From contig MFCX01000032.1 in assembly GCA_001777055.1 (NCBI GenBank), forward strand, positions 1 to 41,358: DNA of 41,358 nucleotides, in the 5' to 3' direction. Positions 1,299 to 36,079 of this stretch are shown one piece after another (position 1 is the first letter of the stretch; each line of letters opens with the position of its first letter). The position numbers and the translations under genes were made by a program. The notes below the pieces were generated by a model. It searched no databases. It was not told the origin of the DNA and was given only the letters and a program-made list of their open reading frames with translations. Source of the DNA: Candidatus Daviesbacteria bacterium RIFCSPHIGHO2_02_FULL_39_12. GTDB taxonomy: Bacteria > Patescibacteriota > Microgenomatia > Daviesbacterales > UBA10151.

Positions 1299-2435
1299 AT
1301 GGTCAAAGCGGGGATTGTGGGTCTCCCGAATGTAGGGAAGTCAACATTATTTAATGCCCTTTTAAAAAAGAGGGTGGCTTTGAGCGCTAACTATCCATTT
1401 GCTACCATTGAGCCAAATATTGGGGTTGTTGCTGTGCCGGATGCCCGCCTCAGCAAGCTAGGCGAGCTGGTAAAAGAGGAGGAACATATGGATCAAATGC
1501 CTCCCCTGGTACCGGCAGTAGTCGAATTCGTCGACATTGCGGGTTTAGTTAAAGGCGCTTCAACCGGCGCAGGTTTGGGTAATCAGTTTTTATCACATAT
1601 AAGAGAGGTGGATGCTATTTTGCATGTAATCAGGGATTTTGAGGATGTTGAAGTAATTAGGGAAGGCAGTATTAGTCCTGATGAGGATAAATTGACTATA
1701 GAAATAGAATTGGGGTTGGCTGATCTGCAGACTATAGAAAAAGTTCAAAGTTCAAAGTTCCCCGGCCTCGCTCCGCGAAGCCACGCCAAAGGCGGGCGAA
1801 GCGGGGCGGGCAAAGTTCAAAGCGACAATTTAAAATTCAAAGTTTCTGCAATAGAAAAAATCAGAGTAGTCTTAAATGCAGGGCAAATGGCAAATGCAGC
1901 AAATTTAACAGATGACGAACAGGAGGTGGTTCGGGAATTACATTTACTTACACTCAAGCCAATCTTATATGCCTATAATGTTTCCGAAGCAGAGTACGCA
2001 GATAAACTGCGAGATTCTTCGTTAATCACTCAGAATGACAAGTTTGTTATATGTGCAAAGGTTGAGGAAGAGCTAGCTGATTTGACAGAGGAAGAAAGAA
2101 TTGAGTACTTAAAAGAGTTAGGAATTGAGGAGACGGGTTTGGAGAGATTAATTAAAAAGGCCTACTTTTTTTTGGGGCTAATCTCATTTTTAACAGCTGG
2201 CAAAAAAGAAGTTAGGGCTTGGACTATAAAGCGGGGAACTAAAGCTCCACAGGCTGCAGGAGTAATTCATACTGACTTTGAGAAAAAATTTATAAGAGCA
2301 GAAGTTGTAGAGTATGGCAAATTAATAGAAGCAGGCTCTCATTCGGCTGCTAAAACAAAAGGCTGGGTAAGAACTGAAGGTAAAGATTATATTATGCAAG
2401 ATGGAGATGTTGTGGAATTTTTAATTGGGAGTTAA
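1299..2435 (+). CDS. ychF: ribosome-binding ATPase YchF (Obg-like GTPase family)
   Basis: G1 motif GLPNVGKST, DIAGLVKGAS and NQFL are present. The C-terminal TGS-type region reads AWTIKRGTKAPQAAGVIHTDFEKKFIRAEV. The helical insert region carries a repeat-derived segment (see repeat 1740-1845). Confidence 0.93.
   Translation: MVKAGIVGLPNVGKSTLFNALLKKRVALSANYPFATIEPNIGVVAVPDARLSKLGELVKEEEHMDQMPPLVPAVVEFVDIAGLVKGASTGAGLGNQFLSHIREVDAILHVIRDFEDVEVIREGSISPDEDKLTIEIELGLADLQTIEKVQSSKFPGLAPRSHAKGGRSGAGKVQSDNLKFKVSAIEKIRVVLNAGQMANAANLTDDEQEVVRELHLLTLKPILYAYNVSEAEYADKLRDSSLITQNDKFVICAKVEEELADLTEEERIEYLKELGIEETGLERLIKKAYFFLGLISFLTAGKKEVRAWTIKRGTKAPQAAGVIHTDFEKKFIRAEVVEYGKLIEAGSHSAAKTKGWVRTEGKDYIMQDGDVVEFLIGS
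1740..1845. repeat. in-frame composite repeat inside ychF: AAAGTTC heptamers flanking a GC-rich imperfect palindrome
   Basis: AAAGTTC x3 (1740-1760), then cccggcctcgctccgcgaagccacgccaaaggcgggcgaagcggggcggg, then further caaagttc / aaattcaaagtt copies. It translates as KVQSSKFPGLAPRSHAKGGRSGAGKVQSDNLKFKV. The 12-mer cctcgctccgcg (1766-1777) recurs in galU at 27464-27475. Confidence 0.7.
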
Positions 2436-3445
2436 AACTTATCTTTGGGCCGGAATTGATGAGATTCAATTTCATAATATGCTCCTTTTGTTACTCCTTT
2501 TTTTCTAATAAACCCACTATTTTGTAGCTTTTTCAAATCATAACGTAAGGTTCTTTCATTTACCGCCATAAACCTTCTTCTAATTTCATCAAAACTGACT
2601 AATTTGTGATCCTCTATGATACTTAGAATCTCAGCCCTCCTTGGAAGAAGGTAGTCTACGGCTTTTGATTGTTGTTTTGCTAAAACTTCTCTTTTGCCAT
2701 CTTCTGCGCTTTTAGCAATAACTTCCAGCATAAATTCCAAATAATCAGTAGTGTCTTTTTCTGGTTCATCTAAGGATCTATAATAATTATTTCTTTCTTG
2801 GTCTAAGTATTCCTCTAGGGCAAGTAGACCCTTCATTCCATAACCGCCTTTGGCCAAGATTGCCAACAAAAGTAATCTGCCAACTCTACCATTACCATCC
2901 AAAAAGGGATGAATTTTTTCAAAAATATAATGGGCAAGACAGGCTCTTATGGGAATAAATTGCTCCTTATTACTATTTATAAACATAAATAATTTATTTA
3001 TATGGGAGATAATCTGACTTGGTTTGGGAGGTAGGTAAATAGCAATACCAGCAGTGTTAAAAATAGCACTACTTTCTGTTCTGAATTTCCCCAAATCGCT
3101 TTTTTGAACAATTTCTTCTAGTACAATTTGATGAAAATGCAAGATATCTTTGAGACTTAACTCTTTTGCACTTCTTTGATAAATCAAATTTAAGCCTTTT
3201 AAAATATTGAACACTTCTTTTTTCTTTTGATCCTGAGAGGATGTTTTAGGTAATTGATCTAAGGTTAAATCGTTTCCTTCAATACGAGCAGAAAAAAGTG
3301 AGCTTTTAAGGGTGGATTGTCTTCTGATATTCATTTCAATTTCAGGAGGGATTGAAACAGAATTGATTACTTCTTTACTTGATTCAATTGAAGCAAGGAG
3401 TTGTGAAATTTTAGGGATGAGAGTGTATTTTGGAGGAATTAACAT
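2432..3445 (-). CDS. Fic family protein (putative AMPylase) with N-terminal inhibitory helix and C-terminal wHTH
   Basis: HPFLDGNGRVGRLL matches the Fic motif HxFx(D/E)GNGRxxR. SARIEG matches the (S/T)xxxE(G/N) inhibitory motif. The basic C-terminal tail resembles a winged helix. Confidence 0.9.
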   Translation of the reverse strand: MLIPPKYTLIPKISQLLASIESSKEVINSVSIPPEIEMNIRRQSTLKSSLFSARIEGNDLTLDQLPKTSSQDQKKKEVFNILKGLNLIYQRSAKELSLKDILHFHQIVLEEIVQKSDLGKFRTESSAIFNTAGIAIYLPPKPSQIISHINKLFMFINSNKEQFIPIRACLAHYIFEKIHPFLDGNGRVGRLLLLAILAKGGYGMKGLLALEEYLDQERNNYYRSLDEPEKDTTDYLEFMLEVIAKSAEDGKREVLAKQQSKAVDYLLPRRAEILSIIEDHKLVSFDEIRRRFMAVNERTLRYDLKKLQNSGFIRKKGVTKGAYYEIESHQFRPKDKF

Positions 3446-3533: not shown

Positions 3534-4927
3534 CTCATTGAATAATGAGCATGAAACGTCTTTTAAAAATCGATAGGTTTTAGATTAATTTTGTCAAATA
3601 ATTTAGTCTTTTCTTCATCCATGATACTAGCATATTCATTGTCAGATTGCTGCATGGAAATTTGATCAAGTTGGTTAAAAGTAATTCCTGGTTTTAAATA
3701 TTTTTTGGCATTAGGAATATTCTTTAATGCCTCATATGGGGTGAGGTAGGTTTTGTATATTTTCTTCTGTTTACCTTTAGAGTTTGTGGTAATGGTAGCA
3801 AACCCACAAGGCCTATGGAAGTTAAGATATGGGTTAAAAACCTTTAAGTAAAAGTCATTAATCTCTGGGGCATATTTCTGATGGATGTAGAAATACCCCA
3901 TGTGTTTTCTGATGATTGAGCCATTTTTGCTCTCAACTAAGGCATTGTCATTTGTTTGTCTGGCTCTGGATTTAGTCAGTCTGATTAAGAGTTTGTTTAA
4001 AAGTCGGGCTACAGTTTTGTTGATGTATTCAGAGCCGTTATCTGCATGAAACTCAATGATGATAAATGGGTATTGCTCAATGATTAACTTTAAAATTGGT
4101 TCCAGGTAGGATTCAGAGATTTGTTCCACTGAAGCAATGATTTCCCATTGAGTTATCTCATCAACTGAGTTGATGTGGTAAACACCTTTGGTATACTTTT
4201 GTCCACCAGATTGTCCTTTATCTACCAAATCTGTGGCTAAATCACCCTGATGGACAGTATCTATCCTGATATATCCGGGTTTACCTTGAGGCTCCGGTTT
4301 TGCCCTTTCTCCAATATTTCTCTGGACTGCCTGGGTGTTTTTAAAGGTTAAATTTTTAGATAAATATATTCTGGTAGTTCTTAACCGATAGATTGTGGCA
4401 ACTGAAATATGACTGATGCTTTCATACTCAGTTTTACCATATTTTTGGTACTCCCTGATTAAAATCTTCTGAGTAGCAGGACCGTTAAGTCTTTGGTGAA
4501 CATTGTCAGTTTTACACAAAAGGACAATATCCCCCGGAGAATATCTAGTTGGGAAAGAATGTCTCTCATACTCTACAAAGGCCAGCCTACCCTTTAAATA
4601 TTTAGCGATTAATCTTGAGAGTTGGGCATTTGAATAACCGGTAATCTTTTGGATATATTCCCTGACTTCTCCTCTGTCACCTTTCCTTAACTTTCTGAAA
4701 TTAAACCTCACTAAAACTTCCTTTACCCATTCATACTTTTGTTTCTTGGAACCCCCTGAAAACTTAACAGGCAGGTTTCCATTTAGGAATTTCCCCAGAG
4801 CATTAAAGTCATTTAAGTTTGTATCAATCATAGTTATATTCATAACCTATGATTTTACAAGACCTTAGCTTCTACATGCTCATCTTGTACTGGAATTACC
4901 AGTTATTTCATGCTCATCTTGTATGAG
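3534..4927 (-). mobile_element. insertion sequence carrying one DDE transposase; boundaries approximate
   Basis: A 12-bp terminal inverted repeat pairs ATGAGCATGAAA (3545-3556) with TTTCATGCTCAT (4906-4917). Both ends also carry CTCAT-N5/6-ATGAG mini-palindromes (3534-3549, 4913-4927). The right end has a 15-nt direct repeat catgctcatcttgta (4875-4889, 4909-4923). Confidence 0.5.
3563..4843 (-). CDS. DDE-type transposase/integrase (rve-like catalytic core)
   Basis: The D, D, E contexts IRIDTVHQGD ... FHADNGSEYIN ... NALVESKNGSIIRK are typical of retroviral-integrase-type cores. The N-terminal region is HTH-like. The IS family is not assigned. Confidence 0.8.
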   Translation of the reverse strand: MNITMIDTNLNDFNALGKFLNGNLPVKFSGGSKKQKYEWVKEVLVRFNFRKLRKGDRGEVREYIQKITGYSNAQLSRLIAKYLKGRLAFVEYERHSFPTRYSPGDIVLLCKTDNVHQRLNGPATQKILIREYQKYGKTEYESISHISVATIYRLRTTRIYLSKNLTFKNTQAVQRNIGERAKPEPQGKPGYIRIDTVHQGDLATDLVDKGQSGGQKYTKGVYHINSVDEITQWEIIASVEQISESYLEPILKLIIEQYPFIIIEFHADNGSEYINKTVARLLNKLLIRLTKSRARQTNDNALVESKNGSIIRKHMGYFYIHQKYAPEINDFYLKVFNPYLNFHRPCGFATITTNSKGKQKKIYKTYLTPYEALKNIPNAKKYLKPGITFNQLDQISMQQSDNEYASIMDEEKTKLFDKINLKPIDF

Positions 4928-27926: not shown

Positions 27927-27955
27927 TTGACAGAATGAAATGTTGATACTATACT
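27927..27955 (+). promoter_or_regulatory. sigma70-type promoter of the radical SAM operon, predicting a leaderless or near-leaderless mRNA
   Basis: TTGACA (27927-27932), a 17-nt spacer, then TATACT (27950-27955). The ATG of the rSAM gene starts at 27962, 6 nt after the -10 hexamer. No Shine-Dalgarno is present. Confidence 0.45.
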
Positions 27956-27961
27956 CGGCCT

Positions 27962-29092
27962 ATGGCGATAGAAGAGGATCAAGTAAGATCCTCGGATATT
28001 TATAAAACTCTTTCTGCGCCACTTGATGTTCAGGTAGAGGTGACGACTCTATGTAATGAAGCATGTGTGCACTGTTATAATTTTTGGCGAGGAAAACAGT
28101 TCAAAAAAGAGGTTGCCAATTTCCCTCAGAAAACCCTACAGAAAGATCAACTTTCACATATTATGGCAGGGTTAATTCAGGATCAAGTTTTTAGCGTTAC
28201 CTTTACCGGAGGAGAACCATTTCTTTATAGATCAACAGTTATTGAGGGAATTAGGCAAGCCCGAGAAGGAGGCTTAGATTGTTCCTTAAACAGTAACTTA
28301 ACAACCATGACCCCTGCTACGGCAGATCGTCTTAGAAAGATGGGTTTAGGCTCCATACTTACGTCGTTGCATTCTTTTGATGAGGAAATTCATGATGCTA
28401 TAACTCAAAGAGAAGGATTTTTTAAACGTACAGTGCGTGGTATAAAGATCTGTCAAGAAGCCGGATTAAGTGTAGCAGCGAATATGGTAGTAACGAGAAT
28501 GAACCAAAATCAGGTTTTTGAGACAGGTGCATTTGTGAAGAAATTAGGGGTAAAATCTTTTTCAGCGACCAAAGCCACTCCTTGTTTAGGCGGAACTAAT
28601 TTTTCAGAGATTGGTATTAATCGGGGAGCATTTAAACAGATGCTTGAAGATTTATTAAGATTAGAAAAGGATGAAGGAATAGATGTTGACGTTTTAATGT
28701 CCTATCCACTTTGCGCTTTGGGGGATGGCAACCATTTCAGAAAATTTGCTGGCGATAGAAAAGGCATGGATCCATTAGCAACAGATTCTCTAGATGCAAG
28801 ATGCTCTCCGGTGGCAGAGCTTGATCATGCCCCATCCGATTTTTGGGAGAAACAACTTATTGTTACTCCTAATCTTAGACTAAGGAGAGAAAATTTTGGA
28901 GGAATTATAGCACCCCAAGGACGTCAACCAGTTTTTATTGATAATACCGCCTACGAAATTATTGACAAATTAAAAAACGCATCGTCACAGTTTTCTTTTA
29001 AGGGAATTGAACGTGATTTTAAGCTATCGCAAACTTCATCTGATTTCTTTTTTGCGCTCTTTAGAAAAGAGTTTTTTGGAGAAGTCCAATGA
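27962..29092 (+). CDS. radical SAM enzyme, putative peptide-modifying maturase with C-terminal PqqD/RRE-like segment
   Basis: CNEACVHC (CX3CX2C), FTGGEPFLY, SLNSNLT and SLHSFD are radical SAM core elements. The C-terminal LRLRRENFGGIIAPQGRQPVFIDNTAYEIIDKLKN resembles PqqD-type peptide-binding domains. There is no Cys-rich SPASM block. Confidence 0.85.
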   Translation: MAIEEDQVRSSDIYKTLSAPLDVQVEVTTLCNEACVHCYNFWRGKQFKKEVANFPQKTLQKDQLSHIMAGLIQDQVFSVTFTGGEPFLYRSTVIEGIRQAREGGLDCSLNSNLTTMTPATADRLRKMGLGSILTSLHSFDEEIHDAITQREGFFKRTVRGIKICQEAGLSVAANMVVTRMNQNQVFETGAFVKKLGVKSFSATKATPCLGGTNFSEIGINRGAFKQMLEDLLRLEKDEGIDVDVLMSYPLCALGDGNHFRKFAGDRKGMDPLATDSLDARCSPVAELDHAPSDFWEKQLIVTPNLRLRRENFGGIIAPQGRQPVFIDNTAYEIIDKLKNASSQFSFKGIERDFKLSQTSSDFFFALFRKEFFGEVQ

Positions 29093-29826
29093 GTAAGGAT
29101 ATAAACTCAGAGAAGGATTTAACAGGCATAGAATTAGGACCTCAATCAAAAGGTTTTGTTTCTTTTCTCTCAAAAGACCCAAGTCTAAATGGGGTTATAA
29201 AAGATTTTAGATATGGTTATATTAGAGCTTCAAGTTTTTTTAAAAAGAAAATTCCCGAAGTAAAACTCACTCTTGTCTATAGCAGGGAGGAGATGAATAA
29301 TTTAATTGGATATAAAACATCTAGTTGGTTTGTTGGATACGCCGATTCTTCTAGTAAAATATTTATGTTTAGCCCATCTGTTTTTGACAGAGAAAGCAAT
29401 CATAATAAAAAGGATTTTAGAAAAGTTCTTTGTCACGAAATCAGCCATTTATTTATTCGGCAAATTCATAACTCTTATGAACCCGTATGGCTTGAAGAAG
29501 GACTCGCTTATTATGTGGCGGGTCAAGAAAGTAGGTTAAAAAATAGCAACCCTATTTTTAATAATCCGAAAGCTTTATTCCTTATAGATACGAGGAATCG
29601 ATGGAATAAAACTATTGGTAGTCAGCCGGATGTACCATATGCGTTAGCATTTTTGTTGGTAGACTTTTTGATTAGTTGTTATAGTAAAGACAGGGTTATT
29701 AAACTTCTAATGTCTCTAGAGGGTAGATATAACAAAAAGAGGTTTTGCCAAAAATTTAGGAAGCTTTATGGAAAAGATATAAAGTTAATCTTGAAGGAAT
29801 TCTTTTCTAGACAGAATATTAAGTAG
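29089..29826 (+). CDS. HExxH zinc metallopeptidase (Peptidase_MA-like), putative leader peptidase
   Basis: VLCHEISHLFIRQIHNSYEPVWLEEGLAYYVAG gives HExxH plus a downstream Glu (gluzincin pattern). There is no signal peptide. The start overlaps the rSAM stop (ATGA). Confidence 0.7.
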   Translation: MSKDINSEKDLTGIELGPQSKGFVSFLSKDPSLNGVIKDFRYGYIRASSFFKKKIPEVKLTLVYSREEMNNLIGYKTSSWFVGYADSSSKIFMFSPSVFDRESNHNKKDFRKVLCHEISHLFIRQIHNSYEPVWLEEGLAYYVAGQESRLKNSNPIFNNPKALFLIDTRNRWNKTIGSQPDVPYALAFLLVDFLISCYSKDRVIKLLMSLEGRYNKKRFCQKFRKLYGKDIKLILKEFFSRQNIK

Positions 29827-29842
29827 AAAGGGGGTGAGAAAT

Positions 29843-30121
29843 ATGCCTCTAATAGAACTCGAGGGAACACCTAGTACCGCTGCTGCCAATGGCAGTAAGG
29901 ACGTAAGTGTGGTGCCTCAGTTTGTATCAATATTAAATAGTAAAGGATTGGAGTTGTCCATAGGGGAACAGGTAGAAACTGCATTTAGTCCTGGTCCACC
30001 GCTACCACCACCTTGCTTTGGTAAGCCACCACCTCCTTGTGTTGGTAGGCCACCAGAACCTTGCTATGGTAAGCCGCCAGGTGGGCCACCACCTTGTTAT
30101 GGTGGTTGCTATGGTCGGTAA
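29843..30121 (+). CDS. 92-aa putative RiPP precursor: leader plus Cys-Pro-Gly repeat core
   Basis: A Shine-Dalgarno aaaggggg lies 8 nt upstream of the ATG at 29843. The C-terminal 43 aa are PGPPLPPPCFGKPPPPCVGRPPEPCYGKPPGGPPPCYGGCYGR. The gene begins 16 nt after the peptidase gene. Confidence 0.6.
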   Translation: MPLIELEGTPSTAAANGSKDVSVVPQFVSILNSKGLELSIGEQVETAFSPGPPLPPPCFGKPPPPCVGRPPEPCYGKPPGGPPPCYGGCYGR

Positions 30122-30258: not shown

Positions 30259-30702
30259 TTAGTGGATGACTCTCAAAACTAAAACTAAACCTGTGACTGT
30301 GGCTGCCTGAGTTAAAATACCCCAAGGCAATTTTGCTGTTGAATTCGTTTGGTGACCAAAATTATAAAAATAGGAAAACGGAGGAAATTTCCAATTGAGC
30401 AGCCAGTAAGGAGCCTGTAATATATCCCATGATTCAGAGATCAAGATCGCCAGAAAAAGATAGGTAAGACTAACTGATTGGCCAAAAAGGATATAAGATA
30501 AAATTACCCCAAAAGTTAGATCCGCTATGCTTTGAAAAAATAAAACAAGCTTTTTTTTGCTTTTCCAGCCCCGGCCAAAATCCCAATGGGGAATCATATC
30601 GGCAATAGGGTGTGAAATGGCAACAAGCGGAATGCCTATGGCAGGGTCAGGTATGGCAGCGGCAATGCTGGCTCCTATTAATGCGTGTGCGGTAGCGGTC
30701 AT
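30259..30702 (-). CDS. small integral membrane protein, possibly YdjM/DUF457-like metal-dependent hydrolase
   Basis: MTATAHALIGASIAAAI...ISHPIADMIPHWDF with 4-5 TM segments. The start is taken at the internal ATG (30700-30702) because the longer ORF would overlap the lgt promoter region. Confidence 0.5.
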   Translation of the reverse strand: MTATAHALIGASIAAAIPDPAIGIPLVAISHPIADMIPHWDFGRGWKSKKKLVLFFQSIADLTFGVILSYILFGQSVSLTYLFLAILISESWDILQAPYWLLNWKFPPFSYFYNFGHQTNSTAKLPWGILTQAATVTGLVLVLRVIH

Positions 30703-30771
30703 ACGGCAGGAAACAGTGTAGCACACTTTGTCAATTTGATTCAACCTTGTTGTTATGGTAGGCTAAATATC

Positions 30772-33838: not shown

Positions 33839-34195
33839 ATGGACGAGGGATGGAAAATAGAGTATTATAAAACTACCGGTAAAAAATCTCCTGTGGAAGA
33901 ATTCATCTTTAGCTTAGATGTTAAAGCACAAAATAAAATTGTTGATATGCTAACTTTACTGAAAGAATTCGGGATTACTTTAAGTCTGCCTCACGTTAAG
34001 AAAGTAACCGGAACTTCTTTGTGGGAACTTAGAATTTTAGGCAGTAACAATTTTAGATTCTTTTATATCGTTCAGACAGGAAAGATTTTTCTGCTGCTGC
34101 ATGGATTCCAAAAGAAAAAACAAAAAACTGACCAAAGGAAGATAGATATAGCTCTTAAGAGATTAGCTGAGTATCAACTAAGATCTGGAAATTAA
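33839..34195 (+). CDS. RelE/ParE-superfamily toxin, HigB/Gp49-like
   Basis: About 118 aa, with SPVEEFI...LWELRI...FRFFY...LLLHGFQKKKQKT typical of Gp49/HigB-like toxins. It is followed by an XRE antitoxin (toxin-first order). Confidence 0.8.
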   Translation: MDEGWKIEYYKTTGKKSPVEEFIFSLDVKAQNKIVDMLTLLKEFGITLSLPHVKKVTGTSLWELRILGSNNFRFFYIVQTGKIFLLLHGFQKKKQKTDQRKIDIALKRLAEYQLRSGN

Positions 34196-34718: not shown

Positions 34719-35417
34719 ATGGATTTAATCGCAGCTCAAACATTAAGCCAAAAACTCCAAATTAGTCTAGAACAGGTAGTGCGGGAAGAGTATGAAATAC
34801 TGCTTCTTAAAGAAATTTTTGAAAGTGAATTTGGTGCCAATTTGGTTTTTAAAGGTGGTACAGCTTTGAGATTGGTATACAACTCGCCGCGCTTTTCAGA
34901 GGATTTGGATTTTACTTTGATAAAAGATTTTGACAGGGAGGGATTTATTTCTGAAGGAAAGAACTCATTCACTAGTTTTTTAAAAGAACTTGAGCATACA
35001 TACCCGGCAATCATATCTGTCGAGGCAAAAGAGAAATATTACACAATTTTTGGCTTAATTAAGATTAAAGAAGATTATCTAAATCTTGCTTTTTCAATTA
35101 AAGTTGAAGTTTCTAAGAGGAAAGGGGAATGGATAAAAGATAAAGATTATAGCGACAAGATTATTAGAAGTGAGGTAACGCCTTTAACTGTTTTAGTTCA
35201 GGTAGCGCAGCTTGAGCGGATACTTGAGGAAAAAGAAGATGCCATTAAAAACAGAAAAGCGCCCAGGGATATTTTTGATTACTGGTACATCAACCAGCTG
35301 TTGAAGAAGGAAGTAAAAGTAAGATTTGAGGGTTACGATAAAACACACACTAAGGCGGAGCTGCACAGGTTACTATCAAGAACATATTGGAGGATTATTG
35401 ATTCATGGTTAGAGTGA
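34719..35417 (+). CDS. AbiEii/AbiGii-family nucleotidyltransferase toxin (DUF1814-like), short form
   Basis: LVFKGGTALRLVYNSPRFSEDLDFT matches the conserved N-terminal NTase motif of AbiEii toxins. Confidence 0.78.
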   Translation: MDLIAAQTLSQKLQISLEQVVREEYEILLLKEIFESEFGANLVFKGGTALRLVYNSPRFSEDLDFTLIKDFDREGFISEGKNSFTSFLKELEHTYPAIISVEAKEKYYTIFGLIKIKEDYLNLAFSIKVEVSKRKGEWIKDKDYSDKIIRSEVTPLTVLVQVAQLERILEEKEDAIKNRKAPRDIFDYWYINQLLKKEVKVRFEGYDKTHTKAELHRLLSRTYWRIIDSWLE

Positions 35418-36079
35418 ATAACTTCTTCTCTGCGAGAAAAAGACCTAAAGATATTGAACTGATTAAAAAGCTAAGAGGCTTTGACAAGTCTTATTTTACT
35501 GTAGCTGATTTAGAAAAAGTGTTGAATCTTAAAAGGAGCAGTCTTTATGTGACTTTAAATAGGTTGGTCAAATCAGGGGTGTTGGTTAGATTGGGAAAAG
35601 ACCTTTATTCGCCTTTCACAGAGGCTCCTGATATAGAAAAGATCGCCAACGAGCTATATTTTCCTTCTTACCTATCTTTCGAACAAGCATTATCCCAATA
35701 TGGTATTTTATCGCAAATTCCTTATGTCAAAACCTTTGCTACCATCAGGCCTACTAAAAAAATGGTTATTGCCGGCGTAGATGTAGAGTTTAGCCATTTG
35801 AAAAAACAGCTATTTTTTGGCTATAATCTCAGGAACGGTAAATATATTGCCGAGAAGGAAAAAGCATTACTAGATCAACTCTATATGGTAAGTATGGGCA
35901 AAAGGAGTATTAACATTGAGGAATTGGATATAAGAGATATCAACAAACTTAAGTTGGAAGATTATGCTAGAAAATTTCCTGCCCAGATGAAACCTTTGCT
36001 TAGTCGGATAAAAAAATACATGGGAACTACACCTGTGACACTTGAGGGTGAGGGGAGGATAGTTTGGGGCAAACGATAA
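35405..36079 (+). CDS. AbiEi-like antitoxin / wHTH transcriptional regulator
   Basis: The N-terminal wHTH YFTVADLEKVLNLKRSSLYVTLNRLVKSGVLVRLGKDLY resembles AbiEi_4-type antitoxin domains. It overlaps the NTase gene by 13 nt. Confidence 0.65.
   Translation: MVRVNNFFSARKRPKDIELIKKLRGFDKSYFTVADLEKVLNLKRSSLYVTLNRLVKSGVLVRLGKDLYSPFTEAPDIEKIANELYFPSYLSFEQALSQYGILSQIPYVKTFATIRPTKKMVIAGVDVEFSHLKKQLFFGYNLRNGKYIAEKEKALLDQLYMVSMGKRSINIEELDIRDINKLKLEDYARKFPAQMKPLLSRIKKYMGTTPVTLEGEGRIVWGKR

Follow-up and report, generated by a model that had tools for sequence, protein, structure and literature searches.

A three-gene radical SAM peptide cassette of Candidate Phyla Radiation bacteria and a probably disabled copy that has lost its SPASM domain

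Sactipeptide and ranthipeptide systems, such as SkfB/SkfA, AlbA/subtilosin, CteB/SCIFF and PapB/freyrasin, are built from a radical S-adenosylmethionine (SAM) enzyme with a SPASM or Twitch domain, a recognition element (RRE) for peptides that are made on ribosomes and modified after translation (RiPPs), a short precursor with several cysteines and a leader peptidase. A similar set of parts, peptide, radical SAM/SPASM enzyme, RRE and peptidase with no exporter, makes up the systems for pyrroloquinoline quinone (PQQ; PqqA, PqqD, PqqE and PqqF) and mycofactocin (MftA, MftB, MftC and MftE), and in the repeat-motif systems TvgB/TvgA (motif TVGG) and TigE/TigB (motif TIGSVS) one radical SAM/SPASM enzyme acts repeatedly on a tandem motif whose repeat number varies. 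In Candidate Phyla Radiation (CPR) bacteria, graspetide loci have been described that contain SPASM-family radical SAM enzymes and zincin-type peptidases and have an ATP-grasp ligase with its precursors at their centre (Makarova et al. 2022, PMC8939145). In this study we analyse a stretch of 41,358 nucleotides from Candidatus Daviesbacteria bacterium RIFCSPHIGHO2_02_FULL_39_12 (contig MFCX01000032.1; hereafter the window), in which a reading made from the sequence alone had proposed an undescribed RiPP pathway, formed by genes for a radical SAM enzyme, an HExxH peptidase and a small peptide with Cys-Pro-Gly repeats. The proposal of a RiPP pathway stands for the gene family, whose members share synteny, a predicted RRE and a precursor of leader and core, but the operon in the window is not intact, its maturase being without a SPASM domain. 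On balance we favour the view that this is a CPR-specific three-gene RiPP cassette and that the window copy has been disabled by the SPASM deletion, a view that we hold to be probable rather than secure.

The three genes lie on one strand, and their layout, coordinates and motifs, the ATGA at 29089-29092 in which the radical SAM stop overlaps the peptidase start, the 16-nt spacer and the C-terminal string of the peptide are all found in the open reading frame (ORF) list and the raw sequence as first described. The features are the following.

27927-27955, forward strand: promoter-like site TTGACA-17 nt-TATACT, just 5' of the radical SAM start, agreeing with the consensus at 11 of 12 positions.
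27962-29092, forward strand: radical SAM gene, 376 amino acids (aa), the SPASM-deleted allele of a putative CPR radical SAM/SPASM/RRE maturase family (PF04055, 82.5 bits against a cut-off of 29.5).
28052-28075, forward strand: cluster-binding CX3CX2C motif CNEACVHC, residues 31-38, with C31, C35 and C38 invariant in 59 homologues.
28733-28756, forward strand: deletion junction within the codons for HFRKFAGD, at about 28741/28742, where 234 nt (78 codons) are gone.
28838-29089, forward strand: predicted C-terminal RRE-like domain of the radical SAM protein, residues 293-376 (Foldseek; AlphaFold2 predicted local distance difference test, pLDDT, 93).
29089-29826, forward strand: gene for an HExxH...E zinc metallopeptidase of 245 aa, the predicted leader peptidase (Peptidase_MA_2, PF13485, 37.1 bits against a cut-off of 32.4).
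29827-29842, forward strand: 16-nt spacer with the Shine-Dalgarno-like AAAGGGGGTGA, read from the sequence.
29843-30121, forward strand: precursor peptide gene, 92 aa from an ATG start (a GTG at 29834 would give 95 aa).
29912-29938, forward strand: leader motif VPQFVSILN at residues 24-32, predicted to be the strand that binds the RRE.
29987-30118, forward strand: predicted core SPGPPLPPPCFGKPPPPCVGRPPEPCYGKPPGGPPPCYGGCYGR, whose P-C-[FVY]-G units contain five Cys.

The evidence for a conserved cassette comes from two directions of search. A metagenome scan with a profile of the peptide gave 15 loci, and in all ten of those with enough upstream DNA a gene for a 454-501-aa radical SAM protein is followed by a 245-261-aa HExxH gene and then by the peptide, while the genes outside the trio vary from locus to locus; loci L001 and L101 have the same three-gene arrangement. 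Among close relatives, intact cassettes lie at 2886-5258 of L090 and at 1022-3388 of L101. A genome scan with the radical SAM alignment gave 12 true relatives, all of them in metagenome-assembled genomes of Patescibacteria/CPR, in agreement with the reduced CPR-type host that had been supposed from the sequence; the host is a CPR (Levybacteria-like) bacterium. Together with three loci from direct look-ups, these relatives form a wider family of 15 CPR loci with 35-87% radical SAM identity, in which a Cys-rich ORF of 39-93 aa lies directly 3' of the radical SAM gene in 12 loci (2 more are doubtful) and an HExxH protein is encoded within ~1.5 kb in 13. The co-occurrence of enzyme and small peptide, which the sequence-only reading had named as a check, is thus seen both close to the window sequence and far from it. 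The nearby HExxH proteins belong to two unrelated families, one of which includes the window peptidase. In the distant members the cores are acidic and abound in CX2C/C-x-D, CYDCVDCYDCD being one example; multiple Cys is the sole feature common to all cores. A leader motif of the type F/L-x-S-I/L-hydrophobic-N/E/D occurs in 10 of the 12 wider-family precursors against a shuffle mean of 0.19, a control that overstates the significance because the pattern was derived from those same 12 precursors. A conserved leader and a variable core beside a modifying enzyme, with a predicted RRE in that enzyme, are the generic marks of a RiPP locus, and by sequence comparison the trio is a conserved, translationally coupled cassette, specific to CPR, with the layout of a radical SAM-dependent RiPP locus. 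As a separate observation, a 1.3-Mb CPR contig (L106) contains, at 3879-4070 on the forward strand and directly after its radical SAM gene, a 63-aa Cys-rich precursor candidate (…DCECVSCDCVDCNCDCYDCVSN) that is hidden by a public minus-strand gene call at 3852-4121; Cys-rich precursors of such loci are easily missed by annotation.

The small ORF has no match in Pfam or in any curated NCBIfam precursor family. It is nevertheless a real conserved gene under purifying selection, with homologues in 19 clusters from a search of 5.8 billion proteins and a pairwise ratio of non-synonymous to synonymous divergence (dN/dS) of 0.30-0.57 against eight relatives. The family has very few members: among 1.84 billion cluster representatives, 16 were matched by a profile at E <= 1e-3, and 12 of these reach 1e-10. 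In 20 aligned sequences the leader residues P25, F27, V28, S29 and I30 are invariant, and an N-C-I-S-P element is usual among the homologues. The Cys-Pro-Gly repeat recognised in the sequence is well founded. Tandem Repeats Finder (TRF) reports a 24-nt unit repeated 3.2 times at 30004-30079, inside the core, and the homologues have P-P-P-C-[VFY]-G-[KRG]-P-P units in variable number, the last of them followed by a terminal P-C-Y-G-G-(C-Y-G)-R. Among the 20 family members Cys is followed every time (105 of 105 cases) by Y, V, I or F, Gly stands two positions after Cys in 81 of the 105, and each core holds 4-7 Cys; the C-terminal P-C-Y-G units are invariant, with C-Y-G invariant at two positions. 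One precursor homologue, P0174 (84 aa), has a normal leader and a core read in another frame (PLVLVSHHPLVLVSHH…), apparently a frameshifted copy or a sequencing error in the Pro-codon repeat.

The radical SAM protein belongs to the radical SAM superfamily by its CX3CX2C motif and its PF04055 score above the gathering threshold, and it has the motifs CNEACVHC, FTGGEPF, SLNSNL and SLHSFD. Pfam and NCBIfam scans took in the three window proteins, three intact radical SAM relatives (P0013, P0045 and P0093) and five distant precursors, and only PF04055, Fer4_12 and Peptidase_MA_2 exceeded their cut-offs; no NCBIfam model reached its cut-off for the window radical SAM protein or the three relatives. 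The best NCBIfam scores were those of heme b synthase and NirJ2, followed by models such as GeoRSP, mycofactocin, WgkB, StsB, AlbA and PapB, a pattern of generic radical SAM/SPASM similarity. An AlphaFold2 model of P0007 (454 aa), the closest intact relative with a long record, has a pLDDT of 90.4, and the PDB structures that match it best, SkfB, SuiB, anSME and PqqE, are enzymes that modify peptides, SkfB being the top PDB match by sequence too. When the last ~85 residues of the window protein were modelled alone, they formed three to four beta-strands followed by three helices, and the Foldseek matches in the PDB were almost only RREs (ThcOx, MccB, the PbtF RRE, TigE, SuiB, TbiB1, TruD/LynD and McbB), with template-modelling (TM) scores of 0.6-0.74 when normalised to the query. 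This domain is visible only by fold comparison, since a Pfam scan of ten such C-terminal domains for PqqD/RRE models, like the search of a profile against PDB sequences, gave merely weak, scattered winged-helix matches. The structural models thus indicate that the radical SAM protein carries a C-terminal RRE.

The third partner, the peptidase, has HEISH at 29434-29448 and, 14 residues later, WLEEGLA at 29488-29508, as expected of the gluzincin-like enzymes of Peptidase_MA_2, with no visible signal sequence. It always stands between the radical SAM gene and the peptide gene in Levybacteria-type loci and is unusually conserved, being 77-94% identical to its counterparts in 25 homologue clusters, where the radical SAM protein is 64-68% identical. 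A side observation concerns the relatives L091, L083 and L094, from which the peptidase gene differs by a synonymous divergence (dS) of 0.17-0.20 as against 1.07-1.30 for the adjacent radical SAM gene, a contrast that points to recombination within the operon or to a cassette of mosaic origin.

What the sequence-only reading missed is that the window radical SAM protein is about 78 aa too short. Its homologues are all 454-501 aa long and have a seven-Cys SPASM domain, many of them carrying PF13186, and when it is aligned with them the window protein shows one gap of 78 residues. Against the DNA of L090 and L002 this gap resolves as an exact in-frame loss of 234 nt, flanked by two copies of (G/A)AA(G/A)TTTGC, a microhomology of 8-9 nt that encodes K-F-A on both sides. 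The segment lost corresponds to residues ~263-340 of P0007 and holds Cys267, 274, 285, 320, 324, 330 and 334; six of these seven SPASM cysteines are invariant in 59 aligned relatives and all seven are gone from the window protein, leaving the upstream Y-P-L-C cysteine as the sole one remaining. The C-terminal seven-Cys domain with two auxiliary Fe-S clusters that defines the SPASM subfamily is therefore missing. The 376-aa allele is found on contigs from different ENA samples and different assemblers (L096-L098), in at least four independent assemblies, and a 99%-identical variant, P0001, has the deletion too. An assembly artefact was considered as the cause of the short protein and rejected because the allele recurs in separate samples and assemblers; the microhomology, moreover, is only 8-9 nt long.

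For the auxiliary clusters of SPASM enzymes, roles in substrate binding and electron transfer are assumed (PMC10114670), and a related SPASM peptide cyclase retains very low activity when a single Cys of its auxiliary clusters is changed to Ala (PMC5491770). Because single auxiliary Cys mutants are already nearly inactive, loss of the whole SPASM domain should, by analogy, abolish or drastically change catalysis. The maturation step has most likely been lost or badly impaired in this genome, and the window locus is most likely a recently disabled RiPP operon. The dS between the window radical SAM gene and its nearest intact relative is 0.16, and with so low a value the deletion is young. The changes unique to the window lineage number 17 non-synonymous and 8 synonymous, compared with 55 and 49 in three intact relatives, a non-significant leaning towards relaxed constraint.

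Two further observations concern deviant copies of the gene. In P0020 (652 aa), on a 2.5 kb ENA contig, residues 1-245 of the window radical SAM protein (27962-28696, 100% identical) are joined to an Eco57I-like methylase domain (PF07669); the fusion may be a chimeric assembly or a real rearrangement. In L002 (653-3027), a relative with 87% radical SAM identity, a 1-nt insertion splits the radical SAM gene into two ORFs and the precursor, though its leader PRFESVFNKDG is similar, has a core of quite another kind, CITPAPCQACYVGCVGC; possibly this too is a copy that is decaying or diverging.

Under the reading that we prefer, the intact relatives would bind the leader strand, VPQFVSILN in the window peptide, with the C-terminal RRE of the radical SAM/SPASM enzyme. 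Chemistry of the 5'-deoxyadenosyl radical, together with the two auxiliary SPASM Fe-S clusters, would then modify the repeated Cys-hydrophobic-Gly/Asp units of the core, and the cytoplasmic HExxH...E zinc peptidase would take off the leader. In the window genome, the deletion of 234 nt between the microhomologies has removed SPASM and spared the radical SAM core and the RRE as well as the genes for the peptidase and the precursor. As to the product, thioether crosslinks of the sactionine or ranthionine type are our first guess, held with a little less than even confidence, because Cys is the sole constant of the cores and the nearest solved or curated relatives include thioether-forming enzymes.

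Several considerations weigh against this account. The role of auxiliary clusters depends on the system (PMC10114670), the non-synonymous excess in the window lineage is only a trend (Fisher p = 0.19), and the deleted radical SAM gene is still open with all radical SAM core motifs present, so that the protein may retain some function. Both the peptide and the peptidase are intact and identical across 8 contigs. The analysis covers the 41-kb window, and a second, intact maturase may be encoded elsewhere in the genome. The Foldseek E-values for the RRE domain are weak (0.02-0.7), though the match list is uniform and the TM-scores are good, and both the modification itself and its thioether nature are inferred for every family member.

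The strongest competitor builds on these points and holds that the cassette is still functional, the truncated enzyme carrying out a SPASM-independent chemistry (hydrogen-atom abstraction or epimerisation) or serving as a leader-binding chaperone, or an intact radical SAM/SPASM enzyme encoded elsewhere acting in its place. The three ORFs are indeed intact, the deleted allele is fixed in several samples, the pairwise dN/dS of the truncated radical SAM gene is still 0.27-0.36, and the promoter-like site and the translational coupling have been preserved. However, the deletion is so recent that intact ORFs are no proof of selection, all 59 full-length relatives have kept every auxiliary-cluster Cys, and the point mutants of the related cyclase speak against it as well. 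We regard a functional cassette as unlikely. The active site of solved relatives is in part enclosed by the SPASM domain, which also counts against a truncated enzyme that still works.

A bolder version of the same idea is that the CPR family installs a modification new to RiPPs on its Cys-hydrophobic-Gly/Asp units, displayed on polyproline in Levybacteria, that the product is a factor in episymbiont-host or CPR-CPR interactions, and that the SPASM-less allele is a working minimal enzyme or a leader-binding regulator. We put this forward as a speculation that is unlikely to hold as a whole.

Whatever its product, the cassette appears to work like a radical SAM/SPASM RiPP system and, as far as sequence models can tell, belongs to no curated class tested, as had been supposed when it was first noticed: no maturase or precursor family scored above its cut-off. 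Membership of the sactipeptide and ranthipeptide synthases was rejected since every model (AlbA, SkfB, StsB, PapB and the SCIFF maturase) remained below its cut-off for the window protein and for P0013, P0045 and P0093, with 44-81 bits against 850 for AlbA, 53-82 against 625 for StsB, 44-61 against 300 for SkfB and 57-68 against 340 for PapB. In contrast to those systems, the CPR core in the window's branch is a polyproline/Cys-X-Gly repeat without the usual acceptor pattern, there is no linked transporter, and the thioether is one that we infer. The spliceotide class of the PlpX type was likewise rejected: TIGR04103, which we take to be the PlpX splicease model, lies below its cut-off, the three-gene cassette has no PlpY partner, and the Tyr position alternates with V, I and F. 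In cyclopropyl synthases a GYW motif, which is strictly conserved, serves as a ligand of auxiliary cluster I (PMC10878394), and a place among these enzymes was rejected with GYW found in 0 of 59 family members. Like TvgB and TigE, the CPR enzymes would act on a tandem motif, but the conserved residue of the CPR core is Cys, not Val or Ile, and the arrangement of leader and RRE differs. The RRE is N-terminal in TigE, CteB, SkfB and SuiB (PMC10878394), whereas in the CPR family it is predicted at the C-terminus. The CPR graspetide loci, the nearest precedent within CPR, share SPASM radical SAM enzymes and zincin peptidases with our cassette, but none of the loci examined has an ATP-grasp gene. 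In the literature on radical SAM RiPPs of CPR/Patescibacteria the cassette is not described, although subscription journals were thinly covered and an earlier description is possible. The distinctive features of the cassette are its restriction to CPR, the C-terminal RRE, the tightly linked and unusually conserved HExxH peptidase and, in the Levybacteria branch, the polyproline/Cys-X-Gly core.

The resemblance to PQQ and mycofactocin raises the alternative that the family makes an intracellular peptide-derived cofactor or a metal-binding peptide rather than a secreted antimicrobial, which we think rather improbable. As the sequence-only reading had remarked for the window, the cassette has no exporter or immunity gene, and this is true of every one of ~25 loci, which suits such a role, as does a peptidase with no visible signal sequence. 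Structurally PqqE is close, the mycofactocin and PqqE models are among the sub-threshold matches, the P-C-Y-G units near the C-terminus are invariant and the distant cores with CX2C/C-x-D are metallothionein-like. However, unlike PqqA or MftA, the repetitive core is hypervariable, both in its sequence and in the number of its repeats, and changes entirely from one subfamily to the next, the RRE is fused to the enzyme C-terminally, and the loci have no linked downstream tailoring enzymes of the kind of PqqB/C or MftD. Membership was rejected on scores too, the mycofactocin model TIGR03962 giving 59-88 bits against 265 and the PqqE model TIGR02109 48-97 against 381.

It is very improbable that the enzyme is splicease-like, excising tyramine at X-Y-G, or resembles cyclopropyl synthases such as TvgB and TigE in cyclopropanating Val or Ile of a repeated motif, in either case after Cys. 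Two positions have an invariant C-Y-G, TigE appears in the list of structural matches, and there is a likeness between the C-V-G and C-I-S units and the repeated substrates TVGG/TIGSVS (PMC10878394), but the alternation of Y, V, I and F at one repeat position fits neither chemistry alone, the GYW motif is absent throughout the family, the nif11-class maturase 3 model TIGR04103 gives only 57-79 bits against a cut-off of 725, and the distant C-x-D cores have no Tyr, Val or Gly regularity. Finally, we give almost no credence to the view that this is no RiPP locus, with the small ORF an unrelated proline-rich protein or spurious and the radical SAM protein a housekeeping enzyme of heme or cofactor synthesis, because the heme b synthase and NirJ2 models, although its top NCBIfam matches, are far under their cut-off (82-150 bits against 500), so that the confident assignment to a cofactor or housekeeping family that would have spoken against a RiPP enzyme was not obtained, and because the peptide is strictly syntenic and under purifying selection, an RRE domain is predicted and Cys-rich ORFs follow the radical SAM gene family-wide.

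The surroundings of the operon are consistent with its first description. The trio lies between housekeeping genes, an NTP_transferase (galU-like) and LGT, identified by Pfam marks on identical contigs. The consensus-like promoter is present as a sequence, TTGACA-17-TATACT being the best of 9 sites in the region, but shuffles of the region yield 6.6 such sites, and as a promoter it is only suggestive, given that the case is one of consensus match in a CPR bacterium. An Rfam scan of the window found only a tRNA-Leu, and neither a riboswitch nor a leader RNA was seen at the operon. On the reverse strand at 30259-30744, between the precursor gene and lgt, lies a predicted membrane protein of 147-161 aa without a Pfam match, which is probably outside the cassette because it is not conserved beside the cassette in other loci. 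Genes of defence or toxin type are also found in the window: a Gp49/HigB-like gene at 33839-34195, an AbiEii toxin at 34719-35417, an AbiEi antitoxin at 35405-36079 and a Fic-domain protein at 2432-3445.

In summary, this study describes one of very many uncharacterised radical SAM RiPP families, of which the window holds a probably defective copy. One practical consequence follows from the SPASM deletion: cloning the window operon (27962-30121) would probably yield unmodified peptide, a false negative that would wrongly be read as refutation. The same natural loss of SPASM, with the rest intact, offers a ready comparison between an intact relative and the deleted allele for the contribution of the auxiliary clusters. 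The chemistry of the family could be new, since it is absent from curated models, the RRE appears to be C-terminal and no named class has a core like its Pro/Cys repeat. The genomes of CPR bacteria are tiny and few natural-product loci have been recognised in them, and a conserved peptide-modification cassette in such bacteria may provide a lead to how these episymbionts interact with their hosts or competitors.

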